DNA from: an uncultured Acidobacteriota bacterium
GTDB lineage: Bacteria; Acidobacteriota; Thermoanaerobaculia; Multivoradales; UBA5704
Direction: 5' to 3'
Assembly: GCA_963700145.1 (NCBI GenBank)
Contig: OY969474.1
Span: forward strand, 4,320,001-4,384,000
DNA length: 64,000 nucleotides
Position 1 is the first letter of the stretch; each line of letters starts with the position of its first letter. This document shows, piece after piece, positions 3,238-64,000 of this stretch. Position numbers and translations under genes: made by a program. The notes beneath the pieces are model-generated. The model saw only the letters and a program-made list of their open reading frames with translations, did no database searches and was not told the origin of the DNA.

Positions 3238-4373
3238 CGGAGCCGGTTCGCTCTCTCTCTCCGGACGCCCTTTTCGCCGCCGGCGAGGAGATGGAGCTCA
3301 ACTTCGGGCCGCAGCACCCTTCGACCCACGGCGTCCTGCGCCTGAAGCTCAAGGTGGACGGCGAGCGGATCATCGACTGCTACCCGATCATCGGCTACCT
3401 CCACCGTGGCACCGAGAAGCTTTTCGAGCTCCACCCCTACTTCCAGAACGTGCCGCACACCGACCGCATGGACTACGTGGCGGCGGCCACCAACAACCTG
3501 GCCTACGTCGGCGCGGTGGAGAAGCTCGTCGGGCTGACGGTGCCGCCGCGGGCGCGCTACATCCGCACCATCCTGGCCGAGCTGCAGCGCATCTCGTCGC
3601 ACCTGCTCTGGCTGGCCACCCACGCCATCGACATCGGCGCCATGACGCCGTTCTTCTACTGCTTCCGCGAGCGCGAGCAGATCCTCGACCTCTTCGAGCT
3701 CTACTGCGGCGCGCGGCTGACCCTCAACTGCATGCGGCCCGGCGGCCTGCCGATGGACCTGCCGGTCGGCTGGACCGACCGCTGCCGCGCCTTCGTCGAG
3801 ATCTTCCCGGCCAAGGTGGACGAGTACGAGGGGCTGCTCACCGACAACCGGATCTGGAAGCGGCGAACGGTGGGGATCGGCGTCCTCGACGCCGAGACGG
3901 CGATCGACTACGGCATCACCGGCCCGATGCTGCGCGGCAGCGGCGTCGCCTGGGACCTGCGCAAGGCGATGCCCTACGAGGCCTACGGCGAGGTCGAGTT
4001 CGACGTGCCGACGGGGAAGAACGGCGACACCTACGACCGCTACCTCGTGCGCATGGAGGAGATGCGGCAGGCCAACCGCATCCTCGCGCAGTGCCTCGAC
4101 AAGCTCCCCGAGGGGCCGATCATGGCCAAGCGCCCGCGCGTGCTCAAGGCGGGCAAGGAGTCCGAGGTCTACCACGGCATCGAGGGGCCGAAAGGGGAGA
4201 TCGGCTTCTACTTCGTCGGCGACGGCACGCCGAACCCCTACCGCTGCCACGTCCGGCCGCCGTCGTTCGTCAACCTGGCGGTGCTGCCGGAGCTGACCAA
4301 GGGGCACCTGGTGGCCGACCTCGTGGCGCTGATCGGGACGACCGACATCGTGCTTGGCGAGGTGGACCGCTAG
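3234..4373 (+). CDS. nuoD: NADH-quinone oxidoreductase subunit D
   Basis: NFGPQHPSTHGVLRL, GYLHRGTEK and C-terminal DIVLGEVDR. Confidence 0.98.
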   Translation: MTEPVRSLSPDALFAAGEEMELNFGPQHPSTHGVLRLKLKVDGERIIDCYPIIGYLHRGTEKLFELHPYFQNVPHTDRMDYVAAATNNLAYVGAVEKLVGLTVPPRARYIRTILAELQRISSHLLWLATHAIDIGAMTPFFYCFREREQILDLFELYCGARLTLNCMRPGGLPMDLPVGWTDRCRAFVEIFPAKVDEYEGLLTDNRIWKRRTVGIGVLDAETAIDYGITGPMLRGSGVAWDLRKAMPYEAYGEVEFDVPTGKNGDTYDRYLVRMEEMRQANRILAQCLDKLPEGPIMAKRPRVLKAGKESEVYHGIEGPKGEIGFYFVGDGTPNPYRCHVRPPSFVNLAVLPELTKGHLVADLVALIGTTDIVLGEVDR

Positions 4374-5435
4374 ATGCCTTCCTGGCTCGAGTCGGTGCGC
4401 GAGTCGGTGGGGCCGACGCTCTTCGACTACGCGGTCTCGCCGGCGGTCAAGATCTTGGTGCTGATGTTCCTCGGCATCCTGCCGGTGATCACCTACCTGG
4501 TGCTCGCCGAGCGCAAGATCCTGGGCTTCATCCAGGCGCGCGTGGGGCCCAACCGGGTGGGGCCGTGGGGGCTGCTGCAGCCGATCGCCGACGTGCTCAA
4601 GCTCCTGGTCAAGGAGGACACGATGCCGCGGCAGGCGGTCAAGTGGGCGTTCGTCCTCGCCCCCTGCCTGGTCGTGGCGCCGGCGCTCATCATCTTCGCG
4701 GTGATCCCGATGGGGCCGCGCCCGGAGGGCGACGGCCTCGCCTGGTACATCACCGACGTGGACACCGGGGCGCTGCTGGTCATCGCCCTGGCCACGATCG
4801 GGGTCTACGGCCTGATCCTGGGCGGGTGGTCCTCGAACAACAAGTTCTCGCTGATGGGCGGGCTCCGCTCGGCGGCGCAGATGATCTCCTACGAGGTGCC
4901 GCAGGGGCTGGCGCTGGTGGGGCCGCTGATGCTCGCCGGGAGCCTGTCGCTCATCCAGATCGTCGAGAGCCAACGCGAGATGCGGCTCTGGTTCTTCGTG
5001 CCGCAAATCGTCGCCTTCTTCATCTACGTCGTCGCGGGGGTGGCGGAGTCGAACCGGAATCCGTTCGATCTACCCGAAGCCGAGTCCGAGTTGGTGGCCG
5101 GGTTCCACACGGAGTACAGCGGGATGCGGTTCGCGCTGTTTTTCTTGGGCGAGTACGCCAACATGATCGTCATCTCGGCGGTCGCCACGACGCTTTTTCT
5201 GGGCGGCTGGCTGCGGCCGTTCCCCAGCGTCGGGTGGCTGGGCTTCCTCGACGTCGTGCCGCCGGTCCTCTGGTTCGCGCTCAAGGTCTTCGCCTTCCTC
5301 TTCGTCTACATCTGGTTCCGCGGCACCTTCCCGCGCTACCGCTTCGACCAGCTCATGGACCTGGGCTGGAAGTGGATGATCCCCCTCGCCCTGGCCAACA
5401 TCCTGGTCACCGGGCTGCTCAAGCTCACTTTCTAG
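4374..5435 (+). CDS. nuoH: NADH-quinone oxidoreductase subunit H
   Basis: ERKILGFIQARVGPNRVG, PFDLPEAESELVAGFHTEYSG and PRYRFDQLM. Confidence 0.98.
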   Translation: MPSWLESVRESVGPTLFDYAVSPAVKILVLMFLGILPVITYLVLAERKILGFIQARVGPNRVGPWGLLQPIADVLKLLVKEDTMPRQAVKWAFVLAPCLVVAPALIIFAVIPMGPRPEGDGLAWYITDVDTGALLVIALATIGVYGLILGGWSSNNKFSLMGGLRSAAQMISYEVPQGLALVGPLMLAGSLSLIQIVESQREMRLWFFVPQIVAFFIYVVAGVAESNRNPFDLPEAESELVAGFHTEYSGMRFALFFLGEYANMIVISAVATTLFLGGWLRPFPSVGWLGFLDVVPPVLWFALKVFAFLFVYIWFRGTFPRYRFDQLMDLGWKWMIPLALANILVTGLLKLTF

Positions 5436-5928: not shown

Positions 5929-6447
5929 TTGAGCGGCGCGGACCTCCTCTTCTACGCCTTCGCGGCGATGGCGCTGCTGGGGGCGGTGCTGGTGGTGGCG
6001 TTGCGCAACCCGATGTACGGCGCTATCTCGCTGCTCGGCACCTTCCTGGCGGTGGCGGCGCTCTTCCTGCTGCGCCACGCCGAGTTCCTGGCCATCGTCC
6101 AGATCTTCGTCTACGGCGGCGGCATCATGGTGCTCTTCCTCTTCGTCATCATGCTGGTCAACCTCCACCGCCTGCGCGAGACGACGAAGTACGACCGGCA
6201 GACGCCGCTGGCGGCGGTCCTGGGGCTCATCCTGGTGGCGCTCTTCGTCACCGTCTTCGCGCTCGCCGGCTTCGGGCCGCCGCTGGCGCGGCCGGAGGTC
6301 TTCACCGCCGGCGCCCAGGGGATCAGCGGCAACTCGCAGGCCGTGGCCTGGCTGCTCTACCGCGACTACCTGCTGCCGTTCGAGATCGCCTCGATCTTCC
6401 TGCTCATCGCGATGATCGGCGCCGTGGTCCTGGGGAGGCGCGCGTGA
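5929..6447 (+). CDS. nuoJ: NADH-quinone oxidoreductase subunit J
   Basis: AEFLAIVQIFVYGGGIMVLFLFVIML and YLLPFE. TTG start inferred inside track ORF 5872..6447. Confidence 0.95.
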   Translation: MSGADLLFYAFAAMALLGAVLVVALRNPMYGAISLLGTFLAVAALFLLRHAEFLAIVQIFVYGGGIMVLFLFVIMLVNLHRLRETTKYDRQTPLAAVLGLILVALFVTVFALAGFGPPLARPEVFTAGAQGISGNSQAVAWLLYRDYLLPFEIASIFLLIAMIGAVVLGRRA

Positions 6448-6758
6448 TGACCGCGGAGGTCACGACCAACCACTACCTGGTCCTCTCCTTCCTGCTGTTC
6501 ACCATCGGCCTCTTCGGCATCCTGGCGCGGCGCAACCTGATCACCGTGCTGATGTCGATCGAGCTGGTGCTCAACTCGGTCAACCTCAACTTCATCGCCT
6601 TCTCCTACCAGCACTCCGACCTGACCGGCCAGATCTTCGCCGTCTTCACGATCACCGTGGCGGCGGGGGAGGCGGCGGTGGGGCTCGGGATCCTGATCGC
6701 CCTCTTCCGGCTGCGCGAGACGACGCAGCTCGACTCGGCGGCGGAGCTCAAGGGGTAG
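6444..6758 (+). CDS. nuoK: NADH-quinone oxidoreductase subunit K
   Basis: RRNLITVLMSIELVLN and VAAGEAAVGL. Confidence 0.97.
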   Translation: MMTAEVTTNHYLVLSFLLFTIGLFGILARRNLITVLMSIELVLNSVNLNFIAFSYQHSDLTGQIFAVFTITVAAGEAAVGLGILIALFRLRETTQLDSAAELKG

Positions 6759-6767
6759 CGGGGCAGA

Positions 6768-8843
6768 GTGCGCGCGCTCCTCTGGCTGGTGCCGGTGCTG
6801 CCGTTCGTGGGGGCGCTGCTCAACGGCGTCGTACTGCGCGGCCGCATCGGCAAGCGCGCCGTCGCCTGGATCGCCTGCGGCGTCGTGGCGCTCGCCGGGC
6901 TGCTGGGGCTCGCGATCATCGCCGAGCACTTCGGGGGGGGCGGCCACCACGAGGCCTACGAGCAGGAGCTCTACACCTGGATCCCGGCCGGGCCGCTCGC
7001 CTCGACGGTCGGCGGCGTGCGCGACCTCGAGATCGGCATGGGGTTCCTCCTCGACCCGCTCTCGGCGGTGATGCTCTTCGTCGTCACCTTCGTCGGCTTC
7101 TGGATCCACCTCTACTCGGTCGGCTACATGGCCCACGAGTCGGGGTTCCAGCGCTACTTCACCTACCTCAACCTCTTCATGGGGGCGATGCTGCTGCTCG
7201 TCCTCGGCGACAACTACCTGGTGACCTTCGTCGGCTGGGAGGGGGTGGGGCTCTGCTCCTACCTCCTGATCGGCTTCTACTACCAAGAGGAGTTCCCGCC
7301 CTACGCCGGGCGCAAGGCGTTCATCGTCAACCGCGTCGGCGACTTCGGCTTCCTGCTCGGCCTCTTCGCCCTGGCCTCGACCTTCGGCACGCTGCGCTAC
7401 AACGAGATCTTCGAGCGCCTGGCGACGAGCCCGGAGCTGGGGCGCGCGGCCTACGTCGGCGGGTTGTCGCTGGCCGGCTTCGTCGCCCTCTGCCTCTTCG
7501 TCGGCGCGATGGGGAAGAGCGCGCAGATCCCGCTCTATGTCTGGCTGCCCGACGCGATGGCCGGGCCGACGCCGGTCTCGGCGCTGATCCACGCCGCGAC
7601 GATGGTCACCGCCGGCGTCTACATGGTGGTGCGCTCGAACGTCCTCTACCAGCTCGCCCCGGAGGTGTCGCTGACCGTCGCGGTGATCGGCGCGGCGACG
7701 GCGCTGGTGGCGGCGACGATCGGCCTGGCGCAGACCGACATCAAGAAGGTGCTCGCCTACTCGACGGTCTCGCAGCTCGGCTACATGTTCCTGGCCGCCG
7801 GCGTCGGCGCCTACACCGCGGCGATCTTCCACTTGCTGACCCACGCCTTCTTCAAGGCCCTCCTCTTCCTCGGCTCGGGGTCGGTGATCCACGCCATGGG
7901 CGGCGAGCAGGACATGCGGCGAATGGGCGGGCTCAAGAAGTACCTGCCGGTGACCTACTGGACCTTCGTCGTCGGCGCGCTGGCGATCGCCGGGGTGCCC
8001 GGCTTCGCCGGCTTCTTCTCGAAGGACGAGATCCTCCACGCCGCGGCGGCGGAGGGGCAGTGGGTGCTCTGGGGCGTGGGGCTCGCCACGGCTCTCCTCA
8101 CCGCCTTCTACATGTTCCGCGCCGTGCACCTGACCTTCCACGGGGAGTTCCGCGGCAGCGAGGAGCAGCGGCACCACCTCCACGAGTCGCCGCGGATCAT
8201 GACCGTGCCGCTGGTGGTGCTGGCGGCGGGGGCGGTCCTCTCCGGCTTCATCGGCCTGCCGCCGCTCTTCACCGGCGGCAACGATTGGAACCTCTTCCAC
8301 CGCTTCCTGCACCCGGTCGTGGCGCAGCTCCCCGGCGGCGTCGGGGAGGGGCACGAGATGGGCGCGGCGCTGGAGTGGGGGCTGGTGGGGGTGGCGGTGC
8401 TGGTCGCCGGCCTCGGCATCTGGCTGGCGTGGGTCTTCTACGGACGGGACCGCGGGCTCGAGCGCGGCCGCGCCTGGGCGGCGCGCTTCCCGTGGGCCCA
8501 CCGCGTCCTGGTCAACAAGTACTACGTCGACGAGCTCTACGACGCCACCGTGGTGCGCGGCACCTGGGGGGCGGCGCACGGCCTCCACCGCTTCGACGCC
8601 GGCGTCATCGACGGCGTCGGCGTGCACGGCGCGCGCAACGTCACGGTCACCGGCGCGCTCCTCTCCGGCTTCTTCGACAAGTACCTGGTGGACGGGCTGG
8701 TGAATCTGGTGGGGGCCGTGCTCAACCTCTTCTCGCGCGGCTTCCGGCGCCTCCAGACCGGCTACGTCGGCAACTACGCGCTGGTGCTGGGGGCCGGCGT
8801 GCTGGTGCTGGTCTGCGCCTGGGCGCTGCTGCGGCGTTTCTGA
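6768..8843 (+). CDS. nuoL: NADH-quinone oxidoreductase subunit L
   Basis: GWEGVGLCSYLLIGF, GKSAQIPLYVWLPDAMAGPTPVSALIHAATMV and HAFFKALLFL. Confidence 0.98.
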   Translation: MRALLWLVPVLPFVGALLNGVVLRGRIGKRAVAWIACGVVALAGLLGLAIIAEHFGGGGHHEAYEQELYTWIPAGPLASTVGGVRDLEIGMGFLLDPLSAVMLFVVTFVGFWIHLYSVGYMAHESGFQRYFTYLNLFMGAMLLLVLGDNYLVTFVGWEGVGLCSYLLIGFYYQEEFPPYAGRKAFIVNRVGDFGFLLGLFALASTFGTLRYNEIFERLATSPELGRAAYVGGLSLAGFVALCLFVGAMGKSAQIPLYVWLPDAMAGPTPVSALIHAATMVTAGVYMVVRSNVLYQLAPEVSLTVAVIGAATALVAATIGLAQTDIKKVLAYSTVSQLGYMFLAAGVGAYTAAIFHLLTHAFFKALLFLGSGSVIHAMGGEQDMRRMGGLKKYLPVTYWTFVVGALAIAGVPGFAGFFSKDEILHAAAAEGQWVLWGVGLATALLTAFYMFRAVHLTFHGEFRGSEEQRHHLHESPRIMTVPLVVLAAGAVLSGFIGLPPLFTGGNDWNLFHRFLHPVVAQLPGGVGEGHEMGAALEWGLVGVAVLVAGLGIWLAWVFYGRDRGLERGRAWAARFPWAHRVLVNKYYVDELYDATVVRGTWGAAHGLHRFDAGVIDGVGVHGARNVTVTGALLSGFFDKYLVDGLVNLVGAVLNLFSRGFRRLQTGYVGNYALVLGAGVLVLVCAWALLRRF

Positions 8844-12050: not shown

Positions 12051-12677
12051 ATGCTCAGCGAGGCAGCCGACCATCAGAAAGGTTGGGATTTCGAAGCGGC
12101 AGCGATGCCCTTCGTGGACGCGCTGTACAACACCGCCTACCGGATGACCCGCAATCCGGAGGACGCGGAGGACCTCGTCCAGGAGACCTACCTCAAGGCC
12201 TACCGCTACTACGACAAGTTCGAAGAGGGGACCAACTTCAAGGCGTGGCTCTTCAAGATTATGAAGAACACGTTCATCAACAACTACCGCAAGCGGCAGC
12301 AGTCCCCTGCCTTCTCGGACTTCGCCGACATCGAGGAGTCCTTCGAGAGCCAGGTCAACGAGGACAGCGTGCGGCAGATCAGGAACCCGGAGGAGGAGCT
12401 GCTGGAGAACGTCCTCGACCAGGACGTCCAGCTCGCCCTCGACCGACTGCCGCCCGACTACCGGATGGTCGTCGTCCTGGCCGACCTCGAAGGCTTCTCC
12501 TACAAGGAGATCGCCGACATCCTGGAGGTGCCGGTCGGCACCGTCATGAGCCGGCTGTACCGCGGGCGGCGCCTGCTGGAGGCGGCGATGCTGGAGTTCG
12601 CCCGCGACCACGGCTACCTGCGCGAGGGGGTCGAGCCGACCAAGATGCGCAGCCGCAAGGCGGCCGTCGCGGAGTGA
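12051..12677 (+). CDS. ECF sigma factor (SigH/SigR-like)
   Basis: [25 protein letters not shown] and [26 protein letters not shown]; AAGGAG SD before ATG 12051. Confidence 0.93.
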
Positions 12678-12780
12678 GGGGACGGCCGCGGAAATTTTCG
12701 CCTCGGGTCGGAGAGTTGATTCCCACGGCTGACAATGACGTCCCATCCAAAGGAACACCCCAGGCTCCGCGGAGGAGATG

Positions 12781-13023
12781 ATGGACTGTAAAGTGGTCGG
12801 AGACTCGATCTACCTGTTCTTCGACAACGAGCTGGACCAGGCGCTCCTCGCCCCGTTCCGCAGCCACGTGGACGGCTGCGGCACCTGCTCGCGGCAGGTC
12901 GACTACACCCGCAAGCTCCTCCTGTTGGTCCGCGAGAGCGTGCGCTGCAACGCCCCCGACCGCCTGCGCCTCCGCATCCTGACCGACATGCCCCACCGGG
13001 GCGGCCTCGAGCGCTCCGTCTAG
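12781..13023 (+). CDS. Zinc-binding (zf-HC2/ZAS) soluble anti-sigma factor, RshA/RsrA-like
   Basis: N-terminal Cys plus HVDGCGTC (HxxxCxxC) and APDRLRLRI; no TM segment; lies right after the ECF gene; GGAGG SD. Confidence 0.9.
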   Translation: MDCKVVGDSIYLFFDNELDQALLAPFRSHVDGCGTCSRQVDYTRKLLLLVRESVRCNAPDRLRLRILTDMPHRGGLERSV

Positions 13024-13037
13024 CGGAGAACCCCACC

Positions 13038-13520
13038 ATGCATCGTGCGACGACCTTCAACGGCCTTGGCCGCGGCGCAGCGGCCTGCGCGCTGGCGCTG
13101 GCGGCGCTCCTGGCCGCCGCGCCTCCGGCCGCGGCGCAGGGCGTGCGGCTCACCGGGCTGGGCGGCGAGCGGCTCTCCGACGCCGACCTCGCGCAGGGGA
13201 CGACCATCGTCGTCGTCTGGGCGTCGTGGTCCCCCAAGTCTCGCGACATCGTCGCTCGGGTCAACCCCATCGCCCAGCGCTGGGGCGGCCAGGCGCGCGT
13301 CGTCACGGTCAACTTCCAGGAGGACCGCGCGGCGGTCGAGGGCTTCCTCGCCGGCAAGCAGCTGGCGGTGCCGACCTACCTCGACCAGGACGGCGCCTTC
13401 TCGAAGCAGTACACGGTGGCCACCCTCCCCGGTCTGCTGATCCTCAAGAACGGCCAGGTGGCCTTCCGCGGCAAGCTGCCCGACGACCCGGACAGCGTCA
13501 TCGCCGGCGCTCTTCAGTAG
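13038..13520 (+). CDS. Secreted TlpA-like thioredoxin-fold protein with SxxS in place of CxxC
   Basis: Signal peptide; VVVWASWSPKS, VVTVN, D.DGAFSKQYTVATLP. Confidence 0.85.
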   Translation: MHRATTFNGLGRGAAACALALAALLAAAPPAAAQGVRLTGLGGERLSDADLAQGTTIVVVWASWSPKSRDIVARVNPIAQRWGGQARVVTVNFQEDRAAVEGFLAGKQLAVPTYLDQDGAFSKQYTVATLPGLLILKNGQVAFRGKLPDDPDSVIAGALQ

Positions 13521-55930: not shown

Positions 55931-56100
55931 TCTCACACCTCCTTTTCGGTCATTGGAGCTGGTCGTTCGCGCGAGCGCCGCGCGGCGTGAACGACATCCG
56001 CTAGCGCTCGGCGAGATCGCGCGTCAAAAACAGCAAGAAGCGTGCCTCGCGCGCTTTCGCACGCGGGCACGCCGAGGTGTCGCGAGCGGGGTGAAGCGGA

Positions 56101-56670
56101 TTACCAGCGGCCGCGCAGGCCGAGGTAGATCTTCCCTTGGATGTCGTCGGTGGCGTCCTGCACGAGGTCGAAGCGCCCGGTGCCGAACGCGCTCCAGCTG
56201 TCGCTGACGTAGAGGTCGATGCCGAACTGCGCGTTGGCGCCGAACTTCGTCTCGGTGTCGTCGCCGGGCAGCCCGAGCAGCTCGGCGTCGATCCAGTGGA
56301 TGCCGGCGCCGACGCCGAAGAAGCTGTCGACGGCGCCGAGCGGCAGCACACCGACCAGGTTCACGCCGGCGAGCAGGTCGCTGGCGCCGCTGTCGCCGTC
56401 CTCCCAGTAGCCGACCTCGGGCTCGAGGTAGCCGTCGATGCCCCCGGCCTGCCTGCCGCGACCCTCGTCGCGGCCGGCCGCGAAGCGCAGCGCCGCCGTG
56501 AAGTAGGTCTCGACGTCGTCGGCCGGCTCCACCAGCCCGACCCCGATCGCCAGCGCGAAGTCGTCGCGGTCGTCGTCGTATTCGTCGTCGTCATCCTGGG
56601 CGAACGCGGGGGCTCCCGCCAGCAACATGGTCACCGCGAGCGCGGCGGTCAACGTGGTCCAGCGCTTCAT
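56101..56670 (-). CDS. Small outer-membrane beta-barrel protein
   Basis: Signal peptide ending AFA; amphipathic strands (FFGVGAGIH, AQFGIDL, YLGLRGRW); C-terminal aromatic residue. Confidence 0.8.
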   Translation of the reverse strand: MKRWTTLTAALAVTMLLAGAPAFAQDDDDEYDDDRDDFALAIGVGLVEPADDVETYFTAALRFAAGRDEGRGRQAGGIDGYLEPEVGYWEDGDSGASDLLAGVNLVGVLPLGAVDSFFGVGAGIHWIDAELLGLPGDDTETKFGANAQFGIDLYVSDSWSAFGTGRFDLVQDATDDIQGKIYLGLRGRW

Positions 56671-56793
56671 GTTTTCCCTCCTTCCACGGAACGACCCCGG
56701 ACGCCCGCACGGCCCCGCCGATGCGTGTTCCGAAGGCTCATTTGGCGATCAACGACGCAATGTTATCACGCCAGCGGAGGAACCCTCCGCGTG

Positions 56794-57768
56794 TCATGCC
56801 GCGGCCGCTTCTAGGTCGGCCAGGATCGCCTCCCGCACGCGCGGCAGGTGCTCGAGACCGTCGGGATAGGTCAGGCGCTTGACCGGCACCGCGACGGCCA
56901 GTCGCGCGAGGACGTCGAAGCGCCGGGGCTGCCAGCCGGCGGCCTCGACGAGCGCGCCGACGAACGAGTGGCGGACGAGCTCGATCAGCGCGGCGCGCGG
57001 CGCCAGGGCCTCCACCTCGACGCCCCCGGCCGCGCCGGGACGCCGGACGGGCAGGTAGAAGCCGGACAGGGGCCGCTCGGCCGCCTCGAAGGCGCCGAAG
57101 CCGCCGGCGCCGACGGGCACGCGCAGCTTCGGGGAATCGCGGTGCACGCGCGGCAAGCGCGCCGCCGGACCGCAGAAGCGCTCCGCCGCCGCCGGCCAGA
57201 GGCGCATCTGGGGGTAGCCGTGGCGGCCGGAGAAGCCGCCGGGGCCCGGCTCGACGGCGAGGACGTCGTCGGTCAGCAGCGGCAGGCCCCCGTCCATCAT
57301 CGCCGCGGCGAGCGAGCTCTTGCCGCCACCGTTGCGGGAGAGGAAGCCGACCGTCCGCCCGCCGGCCGCCACCACCGCCGCGGCATGGAGGCTGGGCACC
57401 CCGGCGCGCTCGAGCCAGCAGGACAGGACCGTGCCGAGCAGGTGGACCTCCACCGGCCCGAGGTCGTCCGGGTCGGCGGTGTGGCAGACGATCCCGTCGG
57501 CGCCGAGGTGGAAGTCGCCGACGCCCGGGAAGCGCAGGAGGTCGCCCGCCGCGAGCCGGTAGAACGAGCAGTTGCTCTCGCCCCGCGCGGTGCGGAAGCG
57601 GCTGGCGTAGACCGGCGCCGGCAGCTCGTCCGGGGCCGGCGGCGCGCCGGCGCAGGTGAAGGTCAGGTCGGGCGGGCCGGCGCCCGCCGGCAGGCAGCTG
57701 GCGAAGGGGAAATCGCTCGCCAGGACGAGACCGAAGAGGCGGTACGTCCGCCAGGGTCGCTCGCTCAT
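56794..57768 (-). CDS. HPr-kinase-like (PadeK-like) kinase
   Basis: C-terminal 324 aa of track ORF 56794..58293: YRLFGL, LHAAAV, Walker A SRNGGGKSSL, LTDD; ATGA coupling to the upstream cyclase. Confidence 0.85.
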   Translation of the reverse strand: MSERPWRTYRLFGLVLASDFPFASCLPAGAGPPDLTFTCAGAPPAPDELPAPVYASRFRTARGESNCSFYRLAAGDLLRFPGVGDFHLGADGIVCHTADPDDLGPVEVHLLGTVLSCWLERAGVPSLHAAAVVAAGGRTVGFLSRNGGGKSSLAAAMMDGGLPLLTDDVLAVEPGPGGFSGRHGYPQMRLWPAAAERFCGPAARLPRVHRDSPKLRVPVGAGGFGAFEAAERPLSGFYLPVRRPGAAGGVEVEALAPRAALIELVRHSFVGALVEAAGWQPRRFDVLARLAVAVPVKRLTYPDGLEHLPRVREAILADLEAAAA

Positions 57769-59462
57769 GCCGCGTACCGCCGCAGCCAGGCCTCCAGGGT
57801 GAGCGTGTGCCAGAAGCGGGCGCTGCGGCTGCGCCCGGCCAGGTAGTCGCCGTAGGCCTCGCGCAGCCGGCGCTCGTCGACGAAGCCCATCCTCGCCGCG
57901 CGCATGCCGGTCATCAGCGCCCAGGCCTTCGCCCGCTCGCGCTCGCGCAGGCCGCGCCGGAAGATGGCTTCGGGATAGGTCTTGCCCCGGCGGTCGAGCA
58001 CCGCGTCGGGAAGACGGCCGCGCATCGCGCGGCGCACGATCTCTTTCCGCCGGCCGGCGGCGAAGGACTGATCGGTGGGGAGGGCGGCGGCGAAATCGAA
58101 CAGCCGGTGGTCGAGCAGCGGATGGCGGAAGTCGATGCCGTACTCCGCCGCCTGCCGGGTGACCTGTGCGGCGACGACCGGCAGCAGCGGGTCGCGCAGC
58201 TGCCGCAGCCGCTCGCGGCGCCCGGGGAGGAGCCGCCGCGGCAGCGGCGGAGGCTCCGCCGGCGCCTCCCGCCGCAACCGCTCGCCCAGCCACGGCACCG
58301 GCGGCGATCGCCGGCGCTCGCGCGCCGGGATGTAGGCGTTGGCGATCGGCGCAAGCGTCATCCAGCGCACGAGCTGGAGCGCCGTCAGCTCCGAGTGCCG
58401 CGCCTGGTCCCGGACCTCGGCGGCGAGCCGCCGCCAGCGGCCGGTCAGCAGGAGGTCGGGGTAGGAGAAGACCTCCCCCCCGAAGAGCGTGTCGCCGCTC
58501 AAGCCCGAGAAGAGGACGCTCACCCCGTGCTCACGCACGCTGTGGAAGGTCGCCTCCCAGAGTCCGGCGTAGGAGTTGGCGAGCGGCGTGGCCGGCTCGG
58601 GGCGGATGCCGGGGTCGCCGCGCAGCGGCCAGTGCTGATCGCCGGCGATGGTGACGCTGCGGCAGCCCAGCCGCGCGCAGACGGCCGCGATCGCCGCGCT
58701 CTCGTCGGCCTCCGGCAGCTCCGGCGCGATCCAGGAGAAGGCGGTGCAGACGGCGGCCGGCGCGGCCTCGCGGATCGCCGCAGCGATGGTCGGGGAGTCC
58801 AGCCCGCCGCTCAGGGTCACTCCCACTTCGCCGGGCGGCGTGTACTCGGCGGCGATCGGCAGCAAGAGATCGCGGAAGGCTTCGGCGTAGGCGGCGTCGT
58901 CGCGCAGGCGGAGGGCCGGCCGCGGCCCGGGCCGCCAGTAGACCTCGCTCGCGATGCGGTCGCGCGTCGCCGTGAGCAGCCCGCCGGGCTCGACGGCGGA
59001 GATCCCGCGATAGAAGGTCTCGCCCGGCGCCGGGGCCCGCCCGTGGAGCTGCGCCAGCACCGCGCGTGGATTGACCTCCGGCCGCGCCACCGCGAGGAGG
59101 GGCTCGACGCCGCCGGCCAGCTGCAGCGTGCCGTCCGCCTCGCGGTAGCAGAGCTCGTGCACCCCCAGGCGGTCGCGCACGGCGAGCAGCCGCCCGCGGT
59201 CGCCGTCCCAGAGGACCCAGGCGAACGGCCCGTAGACGAGACGGGGAGCCTCGCTCCCGTAGCGCTCGTAGAGGGCGACCGCTAGCTTGAGGTCGGAGAG
59301 CGCGGCCGGCGCGCCGAGCCGCGCCAGCAGCTCGCGCCGGTTGGCGATGAACCCCGCCGACCAGAGGCCGCTCAGCCCGGCCGGCGCGGGCGCGCCGCGC
59401 TCCCACGAGATCAGGGACGGCGGTGCGGCGCGGCTCGCGGCGAGCGGAGCGCTGGTCGGCAT
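57765..59462 (-). CDS. Asparagine-synthetase-like lasso cyclase homolog (downstream copy)
   Basis: GPFAWVLWD..RDRLG, PP-loop LSGGLDS, SGDTLF and HPLLDHRL; no N-terminal Cys. Confidence 0.88.
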   Translation of the reverse strand: MPTSAPLAASRAAPPSLISWERGAPAPAGLSGLWSAGFIANRRELLARLGAPAALSDLKLAVALYERYGSEAPRLVYGPFAWVLWDGDRGRLLAVRDRLGVHELCYREADGTLQLAGGVEPLLAVARPEVNPRAVLAQLHGRAPAPGETFYRGISAVEPGGLLTATRDRIASEVYWRPGPRPALRLRDDAAYAEAFRDLLLPIAAEYTPPGEVGVTLSGGLDSPTIAAAIREAAPAAVCTAFSWIAPELPEADESAAIAAVCARLGCRSVTIAGDQHWPLRGDPGIRPEPATPLANSYAGLWEATFHSVREHGVSVLFSGLSGDTLFGGEVFSYPDLLLTGRWRRLAAEVRDQARHSELTALQLVRWMTLAPIANAYIPARERRRSPPVPWLGERLRREAPAEPPPLPRRLLPGRRERLRQLRDPLLPVVAAQVTRQAAEYGIDFRHPLLDHRLFDFAAALPTDQSFAAGRRKEIVRRAMRGRLPDAVLDRRGKTYPEAIFRRGLRERERAKAWALMTGMRAARMGFVDERRLREAYGDYLAGRSRSARFWHTLTLEAWLRRYAA

Positions 59463-59468
59463 CGGCCG

Positions 59469-59657
59469 TCAGCCGGTCTGGGTGCTCCCGCCGACGATCG
59501 AGTCGGCGGGCGGGTCGTTGGCGCCGGAGAGCGTGAGCTCGCGCAGGCTGCCGTAGATCACCAGCTCCGGCGGCAGGTACGGCTTGCGCGGTCGTCCACC
59601 GGCTGCCGTGCGCGCCGCGGTCTCGTCCCTGGGGTGCCGATCGTCGGGTGCGGTCAT
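59469..59657 (-). CDS. Lasso-type RiPP precursor peptide (62 aa)
   Basis: MTAPDDRHPRDETAARTAAGGRPRKPYLPPELVIYGSLRELTL-SGANDPPADSIVGGSTQTG; YxxPxL..G....T(-2) leader motif; Asp at core position 9; ATGA overlap with the upstream cyclase. Confidence 0.88.
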   Translation of the reverse strand: MTAPDDRHPRDETAARTAAGGRPRKPYLPPELVIYGSLRELTLSGANDPPADSIVGGSTQTG

Positions 59658-61453
59658 CGCGGGATCTCGGAGGAAGAGGCCAGCCTGCCGCTCGCCAGCA
59701 GCCAGCCTTCGGCGGTGAGGAGTTGCCAGAGCCGCGGCGGGAGGGTCTCCGGCGATGCGCTCTGGCGATAGTCGGCGAGGAGCCGGGCGCCGTCGACCAG
59801 GCCGAGCTCCGCGAGGCGCGAGCCGGTGAGGAGCCGCTCGACGGTCGGCCGGGCGCCGGCGAGCAAGCCGCGCGTCCGCAGCGTCGAGCGGCCGCGGCGC
59901 TTCGCCGCCCTGGCGGCGAGGATCGGGGCCGGCAGCTGCCCCGCCATCGCCGCCCGCAGCAGCGGCTTGGCGGGGTGCGCCGCCGCCAGCGCGCGGTCGG
60001 GCAGGGCGAGCACCAGCGCGGCGAGCTCGGGGTCGTGCCAGGGGGCCTCGATGCGCACCCCGCAGCGCCGGCTCAGGCGATCGAAGCGCTCGAGGGCGGC
60101 GGTGTTCGCCGGGCTGGCGAGGGCCGTGCGGCGGAAGCGGTCGCGCGAGGCGAAGACCCGCCAGGAGGCGGCCGGGCGGTCGAAGCCGGCCTCCGCCGCC
60201 AGCCGCCTGCCGGCCGGCGTCAGCCAGTCGGGCCAGCGCGGCCGCCGCACCAGCGTGCGGACCTCGCGCAGCAGCCCCGCGTGGCGCGGTCCGACCTTGC
60301 GCCAGCGGCGCCAGAGCGCGTCGAAGCGGCCGCGTAGGAGGAGCGCCAGCTCCGGCGCCAGCCAGCCGGCCACCGGGTCGCCGCCGATGCCGTTCATCAG
60401 CACGCTGACCCCTTCCTGCCGGGCGGCCTCGAGCGTCGCCAGCAGGAGGTCGGGGAAGGCGTTGGTCTCGGGGTCGCTGGGGTCGGCGTAGGCCTCCGGG
60501 TAGCGGCTGAGCGGCCAGAGCGCGTCCGCCTCGACGGCGTGCTCGACCATGTTGGCGCGGCTGCGGACGAGGGTGCGGCTGAGCGGCGTCTCGTCGATGC
60601 CGTCGCCGCTCGGCGAGGTCCAGGTGAAGGCATAGAGCCGCCGCCCGCGCCGCTCCAGGGCGCCGGCCGCCTGCGCCGCGACGCTCGTCGAATCGAGACC
60701 GCCGGAGAGGAGCACGCCGGTCTCGCCCTGCCGGGCCAGCCGGCGCTCCACGGCCTCGCCGAGCCGGCGGGCGAGCTCCGGCGCCGCGTCCGCGCCGTTC
60801 CAGCTCGCGGCCTCGACGGTCGTCCAGTCCCAGTAGCGGTCGAGCTCGATCCCCTCCGCGGTCACTTTCACCTGGCAGCCCTCGGGGACCCGGTGCACCT
60901 GCGCGAAGTAGCTCCAGGTGGGCTCGGCCGGCGCGCCGAGGAGGTAGGCGAGGAGGCGCGCCCGGTGCGGCTCGCCGCCGATCCGGCCGGAGGCGACCAG
61001 CTGCGCCGGCTCGGAGGCGAACAGGAAGCCCTCGCCGGTGTCGCACCAGTAGAGGCCGCGCTCGCCGCTGCGGTCGCGCAGCAGCAGGAGCTTGCGCGCC
61101 GCCCGATCGTAGAGGGCGGCGGCGTAGGCGCCGCGCAGGTGGCGGTGCCACCGCTCGCCCCAGCGCCCGTAGGCCGCGGCCATCAGGCGCTCGTCGCTCG
61201 TCGTCGCGTCGAGAGCGAGGGCGCGGAGGAGCTCGTCGCGGTTGTCGAGGCGGGCGTCGGCGGCGAGGAGGACCGCTCCGGGGCCGCGCCCGGCGGTCGG
61301 GCCGGCCGGCGCGAGCGTAGCGAAGGCCGCGCCCTCCGCCGTCTCCGTCCGCACCGCCGACCGGTCCATGCGGTCCAGCCCCATCATGCGGTCGAGCACC
61401 GCGGCGGCGACCGGCGCCCCCGCGAAGCTGACCAGGCCGCAGAGGGCGCTCAA
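59654..61453 (-). CDS. Asparagine-synthetase-like lasso cyclase homolog (upstream copy)
   Basis: DARLDNRDEL, RDRSGER.LY, FLFASE, LLSGGLDSTSV and GIGGD. Start taken as TTG 61453 (MSALCG); the track uses ATG 61495. Confidence 0.88.
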   Translation of the reverse strand: MSALCGLVSFAGAPVAAAVLDRMMGLDRMDRSAVRTETAEGAAFATLAPAGPTAGRGPGAVLLAADARLDNRDELLRALALDATTSDERLMAAAYGRWGERWHRHLRGAYAAALYDRAARKLLLLRDRSGERGLYWCDTGEGFLFASEPAQLVASGRIGGEPHRARLLAYLLGAPAEPTWSYFAQVHRVPEGCQVKVTAEGIELDRYWDWTTVEAASWNGADAAPELARRLGEAVERRLARQGETGVLLSGGLDSTSVAAQAAGALERRGRRLYAFTWTSPSGDGIDETPLSRTLVRSRANMVEHAVEADALWPLSRYPEAYADPSDPETNAFPDLLLATLEAARQEGVSVLMNGIGGDPVAGWLAPELALLLRGRFDALWRRWRKVGPRHAGLLREVRTLVRRPRWPDWLTPAGRRLAAEAGFDRPAASWRVFASRDRFRRTALASPANTAALERFDRLSRRCGVRIEAPWHDPELAALVLALPDRALAAAHPAKPLLRAAMAGQLPAPILAARAAKRRGRSTLRTRGLLAGARPTVERLLTGSRLAELGLVDGARLLADYRQSASPETLPPRLWQLLTAEGWLLASGRLASSSEIPR

Positions 61454-61463
61454 CCGGGGGCGG

Positions 61464-63482
61464 TCACCCTCGAGACGGAGCGCAGAGCTGGCCATTGTTG
61501 TACCTGTCGAGTGTCGTCGCCAGCGGTCCGCCGATCGCCCACGCCGCGCTGCTCGCCTTGACGTTGGCGCCCACCGGCCCGTAGGTCGCCATCCACAGGT
61601 CGGCCGCCGCGATCGTGCCGTTAATGCAGCTCGCGTCGTTGCCGGCGAGGACGTTGAGCTTGGCCGCGACGAGCTGCTCGAACATGTTGTAGGTCTTGTC
61701 GGTCTTGGTGGCCCTCTTCATCAGGGCGATCGCCTGCGCCTTGGTGTAGGTGACGCCGCCGATGGTGATCGTCTGGACCGGCCAGGCCTCCGGGTGGTTC
61801 TTCCAGTAGCCGGGGGTGCCCGTGCCCGGGCCCGCGGTGCGCCGGTAGCCGAAGTCGTAGGTGAGGACGTTCTCGTCGTCCAGGCTGTCGGTCTGCGTCT
61901 CGCCGCCGGTCGTCGAAGTCATTCCCGCCAGAGCGCCGCCGGGCGCGAAGTTGCTGGCGGCGACGCGCACGATGTAGGTGCCCGGCTCGTCGGTGCCGAA
62001 GCAGTAGAGCCCCTGCTCGTCGAGGCCGGTGTTGGCGGCCACGCAGGCGGCCCAGTTAGGCGACGAGGAGTCGCCGGTCGTCACCGTCTCGACGGGGGGC
62101 GAGCCGATGTCGGTCAGCAGCTCGAGCACCACGCCGGCGATCCCGCTCTCGCCGGGGTCCTGGATGCCGTCGCCGTCCGTGTCGAGCCAGACCGTGTCGC
62201 CGAGCAACAGGGGATCCGGCTCCGGGCAGAAGGCGGCGCCGTCGCCGGTCGTCGAGCAGGTGTCCGCGAACCAGAAGTTGAGGTTCGACATGTCGAGCCC
62301 GTAGATCCGCACCCTCCAGGTGCCGGCCGGCAGCGCCACGTCGTTGACGACGTAGTCCGCGTTGTTGGGGTCGGGGGCCGACAGCGTCGAGATCCGGAAC
62401 TGCTCCCACTCCATGTTGCCGGAGGGGTTGTCGTCGCGGTAGATCACCCCGTTCGGGTCGATCACCTCGTAGCGCACGCACCCCACCCGTCCCGGGTCCC
62501 CCGGCTCGCCGCGCCGGAAGATGTCGAAGGTCGAGTCGTCCGGCGGGTTGGGCGGCAGCAGGCCGCCCTCGGGGGTGACGCCCGTGGTGTCGAACGGGAA
62601 ACCGGCGTAGCTCGCCGGCGTGTCCGGGTCGTCGAGGTCGGCGCAGGGAGCGAGGACCGTCCCCGAGGGGGCGCCGACCAGGCCGGTGGTGCCGTGGTCG
62701 AAGTCGCCGTTGAAGAGCTTCAGCTCGGGCACGTCGCCGGGCAGGAGGAAGGTGAAGGTGAAGGTGCCGTCGTAGGTGGTCGGCGCGTTGACGAAGTCGA
62801 GGCCCGGCGGCGGGAACGTCGGCCCCGGATAGATGATCGGGCCGTCGTTGGCGAAGACGCGCAGGCCGGCCTCCAGCCCGAAGGCCGGGATGAGGAAGGA
62901 CATCGGGCTGGTCGAGGCCACCTTGATGTTGCTGGCCAGCACCTCGCCGGCGCCGCAGGCGCCGTCCGACCCGATCGTCAGGTTGTAGAAGTAGTTGCCG
63001 CTCGGCGCCTGGGCCGCCGGCGAGGTGGCGACGGTGACGCCCCACCAGGCGTTGTCGAGCATGCTGGCGCCGGTGGCCGTCCACAGCGGACCGCTCGTCG
63101 GGTTGGGGTCGTTGCCCGTCCAGGCGCCGATCAGGTCCGCCGGCGCCGTGCTCCCTTCGCGCAGCGGGTCGGCGTACAGGCGGTAGACGAGCTGCCGCGT
63201 GCCGACATCCCAGTGGGCCTTGCCGCCGCCGTCGGTCTTGCCGGTCTCGCCGTCGAAGAAGCTGAGCGTGAACGAGGTCTGGCCGGCGGGCGCGGCGAGA
63301 CCGATCGAGAGCCCGAGCTCGAAGGTCGCGGTCCCCGGGCAGCCGAAGGCGAGGAAGCGGCCGTCGGTCGCGTCCTGGGTGGGGAACGAGGAGAACGGCC
63401 CGGGGCCGATCTGCGCCGCCGCCGAGCCGGCGGCGAGGAGCAACAGGGTCGAGAGAAGGACGGTCCGGCGGAGGGGGCTCAT
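61464..63482 (-). CDS. Secreted protein with an SdrD B-like domain and a C-terminal TPGYWKNH domain
   Basis: Signal peptide; LGDTVWLDTDGDGIQDPGESGIAGVVLEL...YDFGY; GTGTPGYWKNHPEAWP. Confidence 0.85.
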   Translation of the reverse strand: MSPLRRTVLLSTLLLLAAGSAAAQIGPGPFSSFPTQDATDGRFLAFGCPGTATFELGLSIGLAAPAGQTSFTLSFFDGETGKTDGGGKAHWDVGTRQLVYRLYADPLREGSTAPADLIGAWTGNDPNPTSGPLWTATGASMLDNAWWGVTVATSPAAQAPSGNYFYNLTIGSDGACGAGEVLASNIKVASTSPMSFLIPAFGLEAGLRVFANDGPIIYPGPTFPPPGLDFVNAPTTYDGTFTFTFLLPGDVPELKLFNGDFDHGTTGLVGAPSGTVLAPCADLDDPDTPASYAGFPFDTTGVTPEGGLLPPNPPDDSTFDIFRRGEPGDPGRVGCVRYEVIDPNGVIYRDDNPSGNMEWEQFRISTLSAPDPNNADYVVNDVALPAGTWRVRIYGLDMSNLNFWFADTCSTTGDGAAFCPEPDPLLLGDTVWLDTDGDGIQDPGESGIAGVVLELLTDIGSPPVETVTTGDSSSPNWAACVAANTGLDEQGLYCFGTDEPGTYIVRVAASNFAPGGALAGMTSTTGGETQTDSLDDENVLTYDFGYRRTAGPGTGTPGYWKNHPEAWPVQTITIGGVTYTKAQAIALMKRATKTDKTYNMFEQLVAAKLNVLAGNDASCINGTIAAADLWMATYGPVGANVKASSAAWAIGGPLATTLDRYNNGQLCAPSRG

Positions 63483-63652
63483 CGTTGTGTCCCTTCTTTG
63501 GGGGAGACCTCTCAGTGTGGTCATCCTTCGTCAGGAGATCGTCAGCGTCGGCTCGCCAATCGGCCGCGATGGGGTTATCCTGGAAGGGCGACGCGAGGCG
63601 TCGAGTGAAACATGTGCAAACTGCTCTGTGTGTACGAGTTGGAGAGCTGCGC

Positions 63653-64000
63653 GTGAGCGCGCTCCGCGTCCGTCTGCTCGGCGGCTTCGAGGTCTGGCAT
63701 GGCGAGCGCCTGGTCGCCGGGTTCGAGTCACAAAAAGCCCGTGCGCTTCTCGCCTATTTGATTTCACAGCGCGGTCGGTCGTTCAGCCGCGACCACCTGG
63801 CCGCCCTGCTCTGGCCGGAGAGCGGTCCGGAGGCGGCGCGCCACGCTCTGCGCCAGGCGGTCTACAGCCTGCGCTCGCTGCTCCCCGCCGGCGAGGCGGC
63901 GCCGCCGCTCCTCGCCGACCACCGCGAGGTCCGCTTCAACCCCGCCGGCGAGCACTGGCTCGACGTCGCCGCCTTCGAGGAGGCGCTGCGCCGCGGCGGC
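63653..64000 (+). CDS. SARP/AfsR-like (OmpR-type wHTH + BTAD) transcriptional regulator, truncated by the window edge
   Basis: Not in the ORF track. Manual translation: VSALRVRLLGGFEV...SQKARALLAYL...SRDHLAALLWPE...ARHALRQAVYSLR...WLDVAAFE; GGAG SD. Confidence 0.9.
   Translation, partial: MSALRVRLLGGFEVWHGERLVAGFESQKARALLAYLISQRGRSFSRDHLAALLWPESGPEAARHALRQAVYSLRSLLPAGEAAPPLLADHREVRFNPAGEHWLDVAAFEEALRRGG

Follow-up and report, generated by a model that had tools for sequence, protein, structure and literature searches.

A lasso-type gene cluster with two cyclase-like enzymes around a single precursor in an uncultured Acidobacteriota bacterium

Lasso peptides are valued both as scaffolds of high stability and as antibiotics, and their chemistry is believed to depend on a single cyclase in each cluster. 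What is the meaning of an operon in which two cyclase-type genes enclose a single precursor gene and in which the customary processing genes are missing? Such an operon resides in a 64,000-nt stretch of contig OY969474.1 from an uncultured Acidobacteriota bacterium. This whole stretch is termed the window in the following, while G000 denotes the source genome, C1 its contig, and other L and G numbers the loci and genomes compared. The operon encodes a secreted SdrD_B protein, a first AsnB-type cyclase homologue (CycA), a 62-aa precursor peptide, a second such homologue (CycB) and a kinase. On balance, we lean towards regarding it as a functional member of an apparently undescribed, conserved lasso family comprising the genes for the SdrD_B protein, CycA, precursor, CycB and kinase, usually those for the RiPP (peptide made on the ribosome and modified after translation) recognition element (RRE) protein B1 and the leader peptidase B2, and one for a small outer-membrane protein (OMP), with CycA acting as an accessory enzyme and B1/B2 being supplied in trans in the window lineage.

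Organization of the operon

The genes in question are the following.

59654..61453, minus strand: CycA, a lasso-cyclase-like AsnB homologue of probably accessory function, 599 aa (613 aa if an ATG at 61495 is used), forming its own clade
59469..59657, minus strand: precursor peptide, 62 aa, matching lasso_leader_L3 (NF033521) with 21.3 bits against a cut-off of 19
57765..59462, minus strand: CycB, probable macrolactam-forming lasso cyclase, 565 aa, assigned by orthology to the sole cyclases of seven clusters
56794..57768, minus strand: peptide kinase with HPrK/PEPCK fold, 324 aa, assigned by predicted fold and motif
61464..63524, minus strand: secreted SdrD_B-repeat protein, 686 aa, Pfam SdrD_B with 46.6 bits
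56101..56670, minus strand: small OMP-like beta-barrel protein, 189 aa, weak Pfam OMP_b-brl match of 17.3 bits (below cut-off) and tblastn homologues
63485..64000, plus strand: 5' part of a SARP/AfsR-type regulator, Pfam Trans_reg_C, BTAD and AAA_16 on L046:485-2785

The gene junctions were read directly from the sequence together with the list of open reading frames (ORFs) and show that the five minus-strand genes from the SdrD_B gene to the kinase gene are translationally coupled. CycA starts with TTG at 61453, 10 nt past the SdrD_B stop codon. An alternative in-frame ATG at 61495 would lead to a 32-nt overlap with the SdrD_B gene; the homologues begin at the TTG position (MSxICG...). The precursor ATG and the CycA stop codon share an ATGA overlap, CycB follows 6 nt past the precursor gene, and the CycB/kinase junction is again an ATGA overlap. 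A sixth conserved gene, that for the small OMP-like protein, is located 3' of the kinase gene and was missing from the preliminary description of this DNA. The divergently oriented SARP/AfsR-type regulator gene faces the operon; its ORF of 766 aa leaves the window and ends at window-equivalent position 65785, and the real start may lie after 63485. An orthologue is divergent from the SdrD_B gene in locus L014, too. When positions 56000-64000 were scanned, no promoter-like site was detected, and the single terminator-like site, after the OMP gene, is within chance expectation.

Two AsnB-type proteins without glutaminase nucleophile

CycA and CycB both match Pfam Asn_synthase and GATase_7, with the N-terminal domain being shorter in CycB. 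Their best family in NCBIfam is the lasso cyclase NF033535 (179 and 215 bits, respectively, under its curated cut-off of 525 bits), and with 135.7 and 129.5 bits they stay far below the cut-off of 267.1 for the glutamine-dependent asparagine synthetases of TIGR01536. A sequence search of the PDB yielded no solved lasso cyclase relative; the best match for both proteins is the hydroxyamidotransferase 7ylz. Both contain the PP-loop SGGLDS for ATP and neither has a Cys nucleophile after the start codon, where CycA carries Ser2. This is the combination expected of an AsnB-like cyclase.

CycA and its relatives start with M-S-x-I-C-G-I-V, which places a Cys at residue 5. In an alignment of 26 full-length sequences (nine partial ones among 35 close relatives were excluded), this residue is Cys in 22, Phe in three and Gly in one, while the PP-loop reads exactly SGGLDS in 22 and varies conservatively in four. 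The nucleophile Cys of an AsnB paralogue from the same genome aligns with Ser2 of CycA, and Cys5 falls on a non-catalytic position. CycA as a true glutamine amidotransferase with an MCG-like 'LCG' start was thus ruled out: the Cys is residue 5, its column is not that of the nucleophile, and Phe or Gly replaces it in four of the 26 sequences. At the place of NGEIYN, which we take to be the glutamine-site motif of AsnB, CycA has DARLDNR and resembles other cyclases. A third AsnB-like gene in the genome (L011, G000:C1:4408158-4410200) encodes a protein that starts with V-C-G-I and retains the nucleophile Cys. It is an outgroup to all cyclases in the tree described below and therefore a genuine amidotransferase, so that this ordinary enzyme was rejected as a member of the system.

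The two-cyclase layout is conserved

Close relatives of CycA are rare. In a search set of 1.84 billion representatives at 50% identity, 18,837 matches were obtained at E <= 1e-30, of which 18 reached at least 477 bits and the next one 364 bits. The 35 close relatives share at least 44% identity with CycA, followed by a sharp fall to 34%. In 401 sampled genomes of the class (including four unpublished ones, used for tallies only), CycA-type matches (E <= 1e-80) occurred in two and CycB-type matches (E <= 1e-70) in eight. Eleven distinct CycA loci were read, namely the window, L035 in genome G329 and nine metagenome contigs (L036-L044). The contig L012 of a metagenome-assembled genome is near-identical to L036, and the two were counted once. 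In all eleven loci, cycA is followed by the precursor gene and then by a cycB-type gene, and the kinase gene comes next in all eight loci whose flank is long enough. The layout with two cyclases is conserved as a family trait and therefore a real variant.

These results support the preliminary description of this DNA in its essentials: the five coupled minus-strand genes with a divergent SARP regulator are borne out by the junctions and family matches, the retained SGGLDS and the missing N-terminal glutaminase Cys by the alignments, and the assignment as a lasso-type RiPP operon, in which an HPrK-like kinase accompanies one precursor flanked by two AsnB-type cyclase homologues, by all of these. 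The gene order from first cyclase to kinase recurs in the relatives, and the small ORF, the conservation of which had been named as a test, lies between cycA and cycB in every locus. The enzymes might have grouped with non-RiPP amidotransferases, but in the tree the Cys-bearing AsnB paralogue is an outgroup to all cyclases.

In this 59-row tree, the CycA sequences fall into a clade of their own (SH-aLRT 100, with a stem length of 0.83), which joins full-length cyclases including that of a second lasso cluster in the same genome (locus 2, support 94). CycB groups elsewhere, in a clade (support 99) that also holds the sole cyclases of clusters without CycA. There are seven such single-cyclase clusters (L013, L014/G269, L045/G189, L055-L058), and CycB is 41-53% identical to their cyclases. 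The most instructive pair are the congeners G189 and G329. The order in G189 (L045) is B1-B2-A-CycB-(PRT-like/PqqD fusion)-kinase, with A being the precursor and PRT standing for phosphoribosyltransferase, and G329 (L035) has the same order plus CycA between B2 and A. The CycB proteins of the two are sisters (support 100/99). Because the CycB clade supplies the only cyclase in seven sister clusters, CycB is likely the ring-closing enzyme and CycA an accessory one. CycA itself looks active, as judged from the retained PP-loop and a dN/dS of 0.48 against L036.

In principle, CycA and CycB could instead constitute one heteromeric cyclase, or CycA could be a non-catalytic scaffold or chaperone that holds the peptide for CycB, and only a single ligation would then occur. 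Such a role would suit two genes that flank the precursor gene and are translationally coupled in 11 of 11 loci, and the long stem branch of CycA (0.83) is consistent with a changed function. What speaks against a heterodimeric cyclase, one of the options first considered for this operon, is that seven sister clusters, among them the sister of a CycA-bearing one, rely on CycB-type enzymes with no CycA present. Furthermore, the PP-loop is kept across the CycA family, whereas a pure scaffold would not need one, and the presence of CycA goes along with a specific core motif. We consider a heteromer or scaffold unlikely and retain CycA as a probable accessory enzyme next to the likely ring-closer CycB.

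Presence of CycA coincides with a core motif

Each locus contains exactly one precursor, as found with a regular-expression scan. The leader of the window precursor has Y-17, P-14, L-12 and T-2, which are the positions read by B1/B2 according to published work on triculamin-type clusters (PMC12070363). With Thr set at -2, the core is SGANDPPADSIVGGSTQTG and contains Asp5 and Asp9. An acidic residue within core positions 7-9 is thus present in the window, and the outer Asp is residue 8 or 9 in all 11 CycA loci. The inner Asp is part of a second pattern. All 11 CycA cores combine the motif N-D-x2-3-D with a penultimate Thr, a combination seen in none of the seven single-cyclase cores and not in locus 2. 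The N-D Asp is found at position 4, 5 or 6 in the different family members, and most CycA-cluster cores end with Q-T-G/S. Two clean contrasts are available, G329 with CycA (FSGNDGLDAVFSGTSVTT) versus G189 without it (GGGNEGPIDAIFAGSSVGT), and the window with CycA versus G269 without it (EQNVFEGFDGIFGSIVGT). In both, the CycA-less state has Glu in place of the inner Asp and Gly in place of the penultimate Thr. At the level of predicted cores, the presence of CycA tracks N-D-x2-3-D and the penultimate Thr.

Two invariant Asp residues, two cyclase-type enzymes and one free amine in the core could also mean that the enzymes compete for the same N-terminal amine and form either a lasso with a nine-residue ring (Asp9) or a five-residue head-to-side-chain ring (Asp5). 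We judge this very unlikely: the N-D Asp varies between positions 4, 5 and 6 while the outer Asp is fixed at 8 or 9, and a ring of four to six residues falls outside the known range, lasso cyclase rings comprising 7-9 residues. Competition would also leave the CycA-specific penultimate Thr unexplained. A further possibility, two ATP-dependent ligations, gains support from the CycA-specific N-D...D core motif.

B1 and B2 have been lost locally and reside in a second lasso cluster

Neither PqqD nor Transglut_core3 was found in the window, i.e., its cluster contains neither B1 nor B2. Among the eight CycA loci with enough flank, five (L035, L037, L039, L041, L043) carry both genes beside the kinase gene, and they are absent locally from the window, L036 and L042. 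The missing B1/B2 pair is a lineage-specific loss and not a family property. The preliminary description had listed the lack of these genes among the features of a possible variant; as a family property it does not survive this comparison, and the window leader keeps the canonical recognition motif. 

A search of the whole genome yielded a single Transglut_core3 match above cut-off (G000:C1:4437229-4437561, 87.9 bits). It is adjoined by a PqqD (B1) match (G000:C1:4436946, 55.9 bits), 53 kb beyond the window end. This only B1/B2 pair of the genome is part of locus 2 (L009, G000:C1:4430134-4437591), which is located 46-53 kb past the window end and encodes, in this order, a 1254-aa secreted protein with a C-terminal Peptidase_C25 domain (E 1e-61), a cyclase, a 70-aa precursor with the core GGTPGVGDSGDPVNFDPPQP, a kinase, B1 and B2. 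B1/B2 are thus not situated just outside the window, as had been contemplated, but inside a second complete lasso cluster. No further B1, B2, kinase or precursor was detected when the genome was searched with tblastn. A second PqqD match at 1155713 follows a HemW-like radical-SAM gene and was rejected as a lasso B1.

Several findings bear on a use of this pair by the window cluster. The leaders of the window and of locus 2 both carry Y-17, P-14, L-12, G-8 and T-2. In G269, a member of the same family, two B2 genes lie on contigs other than that of its cluster. A predicted complex of locus-2 B1, for which the alignment was custom-built, with the window precursor passed weakly, with an ipSAE of 0.57 as compared to 0.01 for the best of three controls, at least 89% of contacts agreeing between three runs and a partner pLDDT of at least 53. 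The mark applied is reached by 58 of 80 solved complexes and by two of 110 mismatched pairs. However, only seven of the 80 solved complexes scored 0.60 or less, as did both passing mismatches, and the prediction may reflect likeness only, because RRE-leader complexes have already been solved. Taken together, the locus probably borrows B1/B2 from locus 2, and supply in trans is the best supported of the options originally put forward, given the sole pair in locus 2 and the shared leader motif.

The condition of the genes is relevant here. Compared with L036, which has the same B1/B2-less layout and 87-91% protein identity, all five genes are intact and free of stop codons. The dN/dS values, rough at a GC content of about 95% at third codon positions (GC3), are 0.30 for the SdrD_B gene, 0.48 for cycA, 0.27 for the precursor gene, 0.20 for cycB and 0.30 for the kinase gene. 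As far as such values tell, purifying selection seems to act on all five genes. Since the cluster has lost RRE and peptidase and yet apparently stays under selection, sharing of B1/B2 between clusters is implied, and this matters for genome-mining tools that demand all four genes in one place.

Two other explanations have to be weighed against such sharing. The first one is decay: after the loss of B1/B2, no mature peptide would be formed any more and the genes would simply not be broken yet. The distance of 53 kb to the nearest RRE and leader peptidase fits this idea, as does the local presence of both in five of eight CycA loci. A remnant should not, however, show five intact ORFs and dN/dS values of 0.20-0.48 against a relative with the same reduced layout, nor an intact leader recognition motif, and in the more distant locus L042 the kinase gene likewise runs straight to the OMP gene with no B1/B2 in between. 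We hold decay to be quite unlikely. The second explanation is that a protease other than B2, be it a housekeeping peptidase or an activity of the secreted or outer-membrane partner, cuts the leader and that the cluster is self-sufficient without B1/B2. The SdrD_B and OMP-like proteins are indeed conserved cluster members, and three loci lack B1/B2 locally. But these partners are likewise encoded in clusters equipped with B1/B2 (L039, L041, L043, L057, L058), the positions recognized by B1/B2 are exactly preserved in the leader, and family searches revealed no peptidase domain in the SdrD_B protein. Self-sufficiency is accordingly the idea to which we give the least credit, and provision of B1/B2 by locus 2 is retained as the probable route.

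The kinase

As a single sequence, the kinase produces just a weak TIGR04352 match (22.5 bits), and its matches in the PDB are confined to the P-loop. A profile of 11 orthologues retrieved HPr kinase/phosphatase (1ko7_A, E 8.4e-4). In the AlphaFold2 (AF2) model (pLDDT 91.5), PEP carboxykinases match the whole chain with a Z score of about 16, and residues 123-324 superimpose on the HPrK/P catalytic domain 1kkl_A (Z 14.2, root-mean-square deviation 2.9 A, 138 residues aligned). The predicted fold is thus that of an HPrK/PEPCK-like P-loop kinase. The P-loop reads GGGKS, and in the 11 kinases H128, G149, K150, D167 and D168 never vary, while conservation of S151 reaches at least 90%. The lasso kinase BsfK depends on H148, K169, S170, D186 and D187, as reported (PMC10368454); the motif His...G-x-G-K-S...Asp-Asp is present here as well, and its spacing agrees with the BsfK numbering in a comparison by residue numbers. 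The assignment as HPrK-like kinase, which had started from a weak match, is now backed by predicted fold and motif.

Since Gly is the final residue of the window core, phosphorylation of a C-terminal Ser in the manner of paeninodin is impossible there; only four of the 11 CycA cores have Ser at their end. By contrast, each of the 18 family cores that were read, with or without CycA, has a G-S pair in its tail. Being shared by both cluster groups, it is a natural candidate site for a shared kinase, and as far as the cores can tell it is the best one.

A proposed pathway and points that speak against it

Gene content, conservation, clade structure, motif covariation and the location of B1/B2 are observations, and from these we infer every enzymatic step of the following scheme. 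B1, supplied in trans, would bind the precursor leader via Y-17, P-14, L-12 and T-2. The kinase would then phosphorylate a core Ser or Thr, with the G-S pair as best candidate, while the peptide still bears its leader; for BsfK, B1-dependent phosphorylation of an internal Ser is described (PMC10368454). B2 would cleave after the residue following Thr-2, whereupon CycB would adenylate Asp9 and close a nine-residue macrolactam onto the new N-terminus, Ser1. Finally CycA, which derives from a different cyclase lineage, could catalyse a second ATP-dependent activation of a carboxylate, most likely that of the in-ring N-D Asp. This step might attach ammonia or a different amine as an amide, or it might join the Asp to the conserved Q-T-[G/S] C-terminus, possibly with involvement of the tail Thr. 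The window lineage, having lost its local B1/B2, would use the genome's sole pair in locus 2.

A more far-reaching proposal is that CycA defines a new lasso class in which a second AsnB-type enzyme links the in-ring N-D Asp to the Q-T-[G/S] tail or to an external amine. We regard this as a tentative and rather doubtful idea. If it is correct, enzymes of the cyclase family alone would produce a lasso that is closed twice and locked covalently, and CycA would be the first lasso cyclase lineage recruited for something beyond N-terminus-to-Asp/Glu ring closure. A second cyclase-type enzyme that is tied to a core motif points to an enzyme-made linkage or modification not yet seen in the lasso class, and natural on/off pairs such as G329/G189 make the role of CycA directly testable.

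A number of points weigh against the pathway and against the reading of the cluster on which it is built. A second ligation is without obvious partner because the mature core has one free amine, and to our knowledge all reactions of the AsnB superfamily use nitrogen nucleophiles. The counts that connect CycA with the core motif come from related clusters and are not independent events, so that they overstate independence; there are just two well-separated contrasts (G329/G189 and the window group/G269). Since the CycA-less sister G189 has Glu5 and G041 has Asp5, an acidic position 5 alone needs no CycA. The dN/dS values are rough owing to the high GC3, and that of cycA is the highest among them. 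Last, the B1/B2 genes in locus 2 serve their own cluster, and their cross-use is deduced.

Secreted and outer-membrane partners and further observations

In the SdrD_B protein, a signal peptide is followed by an all-beta N-terminal domain of ~400 aa that is conserved, by a single SdrD_B repeat and by a C-terminal domain of ~120 aa, likewise conserved; its N- and C-terminal parts gave no match in Pfam. The AF2 model of the N-terminal domain, calculated with six sequences, is too poor for a fold search (pLDDT 48.3), and atlas look-ups with this domain returned only unnamed clusters (0.89-0.91). Homologues are encoded directly upstream of the cluster in L036, L039, L041, L042, L044, L014, L013, L056, L057 and L058. 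The gene precedes cycA in six of eight loci with some upstream sequence, and one miss, L037, has only 970 nt there. In L044, two tandem SdrD_B-protein genes (3438-5015 and 6017-7549) lie upstream of cycA. The C-terminal domain (window 61464-61829, minus strand) is characterized by G-Y-W-K-N-H-P...Y-N-N-G-x-L-C, belongs to no Pfam family and has homologues in L013, L014, L039, L041, L042, L057 and L058. Its identity is 54-62% even in L013, a contig labelled Candidatus Aquidulcis, which means that the secreted protein accompanies the cluster from one distantly related genome to another.

The OMP-like protein has a signal peptide, an acidic N-terminus and a C-terminal aromatic residue. Homologous genes (tblastn, 44-92% identity) are found beside the cluster in nine of 16 loci searched, in addition to the window. 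The protein could serve in export, uptake or immunity. The recurring SdrD_B and OMP-like partners, along with the C25-peptidase protein of locus 2, hint at an extracellular facet of these pathways among diderm Acidobacteriota-like bacteria.

Two features of relatives are recorded here. Between cycB and the kinase gene, L035 (6438-7400), L014 (11681-12640) and L045 (7331-8260, minus strand) encode a 320-aa fusion that is absent from the window. It combines a C-terminal PqqD/RRE domain (45.7 bits) with an N-terminal domain containing the motif VDDCALSG, which we take to be phosphoribosyltransferase-like (no family match was obtained). Locus L014 also contains, within its single-cyclase cluster, ~20 tandem copies of the 20-bp unit AACCTTACGGCGGCCCTCAG at 12660-13075, between the gene for the PRT-like/PqqD protein and a TPR-like gene.

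Comparison with known lasso systems

Full-text literature searches and a 2026 review (PMC13352647) revealed no two-cyclase lasso cluster, with the RODEO lasso survey and supplementary cyclase trees and tables lying outside this search; when two asparagine synthetases were searched for, the sole match concerned primary metabolism. The layout is apparently undescribed. 

The closest systems are those for paeninodin (Pade) and bsf from Bradymonas sediminis, which likewise comprise a leader-bearing precursor, an AsnB-type cyclase and an HPrK-like kinase with His...GKS...Asp-Asp, and which have split B1 and B2 as in the relatives of the window cluster (PMC10368454, PMC8498205). Phosphorylation by the bsf kinase requires B1 and targets an internal Ser (PMC10368454), in keeping with those cores of the present family whose last residue is not Ser. 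The known systems, however, contain a single cyclase together with an exporter and, in many cases, a nucleotidyltransferase, whereas the window operon has a second cyclase-type gene, no ABC exporter and no nucleotidyltransferase. It differs further by its extra members, the secreted SdrD_B protein and the small OMP, and by the local lack of B1/B2.

The class V lassos lariocidin B and gelatinamin A undergo a second covalent closure after the first ring, and this is the type of product that a second ligase could give here (PMC13178200). Their second ring connects a Lys side chain to the C-terminus and is made by an extracellular clostripain-like transpeptidase, GelP, not by an AsnB-type enzyme (PMC13178200). 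The window core has no Lys and the operon no peptidase gene, the C25 peptidase belonging to locus 2; the cores of the cluster family have no Lys either. 

Triculamin-type clusters also direct lasso biosynthesis without B1/B2 genes in the cluster, but the published description gives them a follower peptide instead of a leader and a macrocyclase without N-terminal domain (PMC12070363). The window cluster, in contrast, has a canonical leader, a GATase-like N-domain in both enzymes and relatives with B1/B2, and is not of this type. Set beside these systems, the absence of B1/B2 is a local loss explained by the second cluster, and what stays novel is the accessory second cyclase, which has a core motif of its own.

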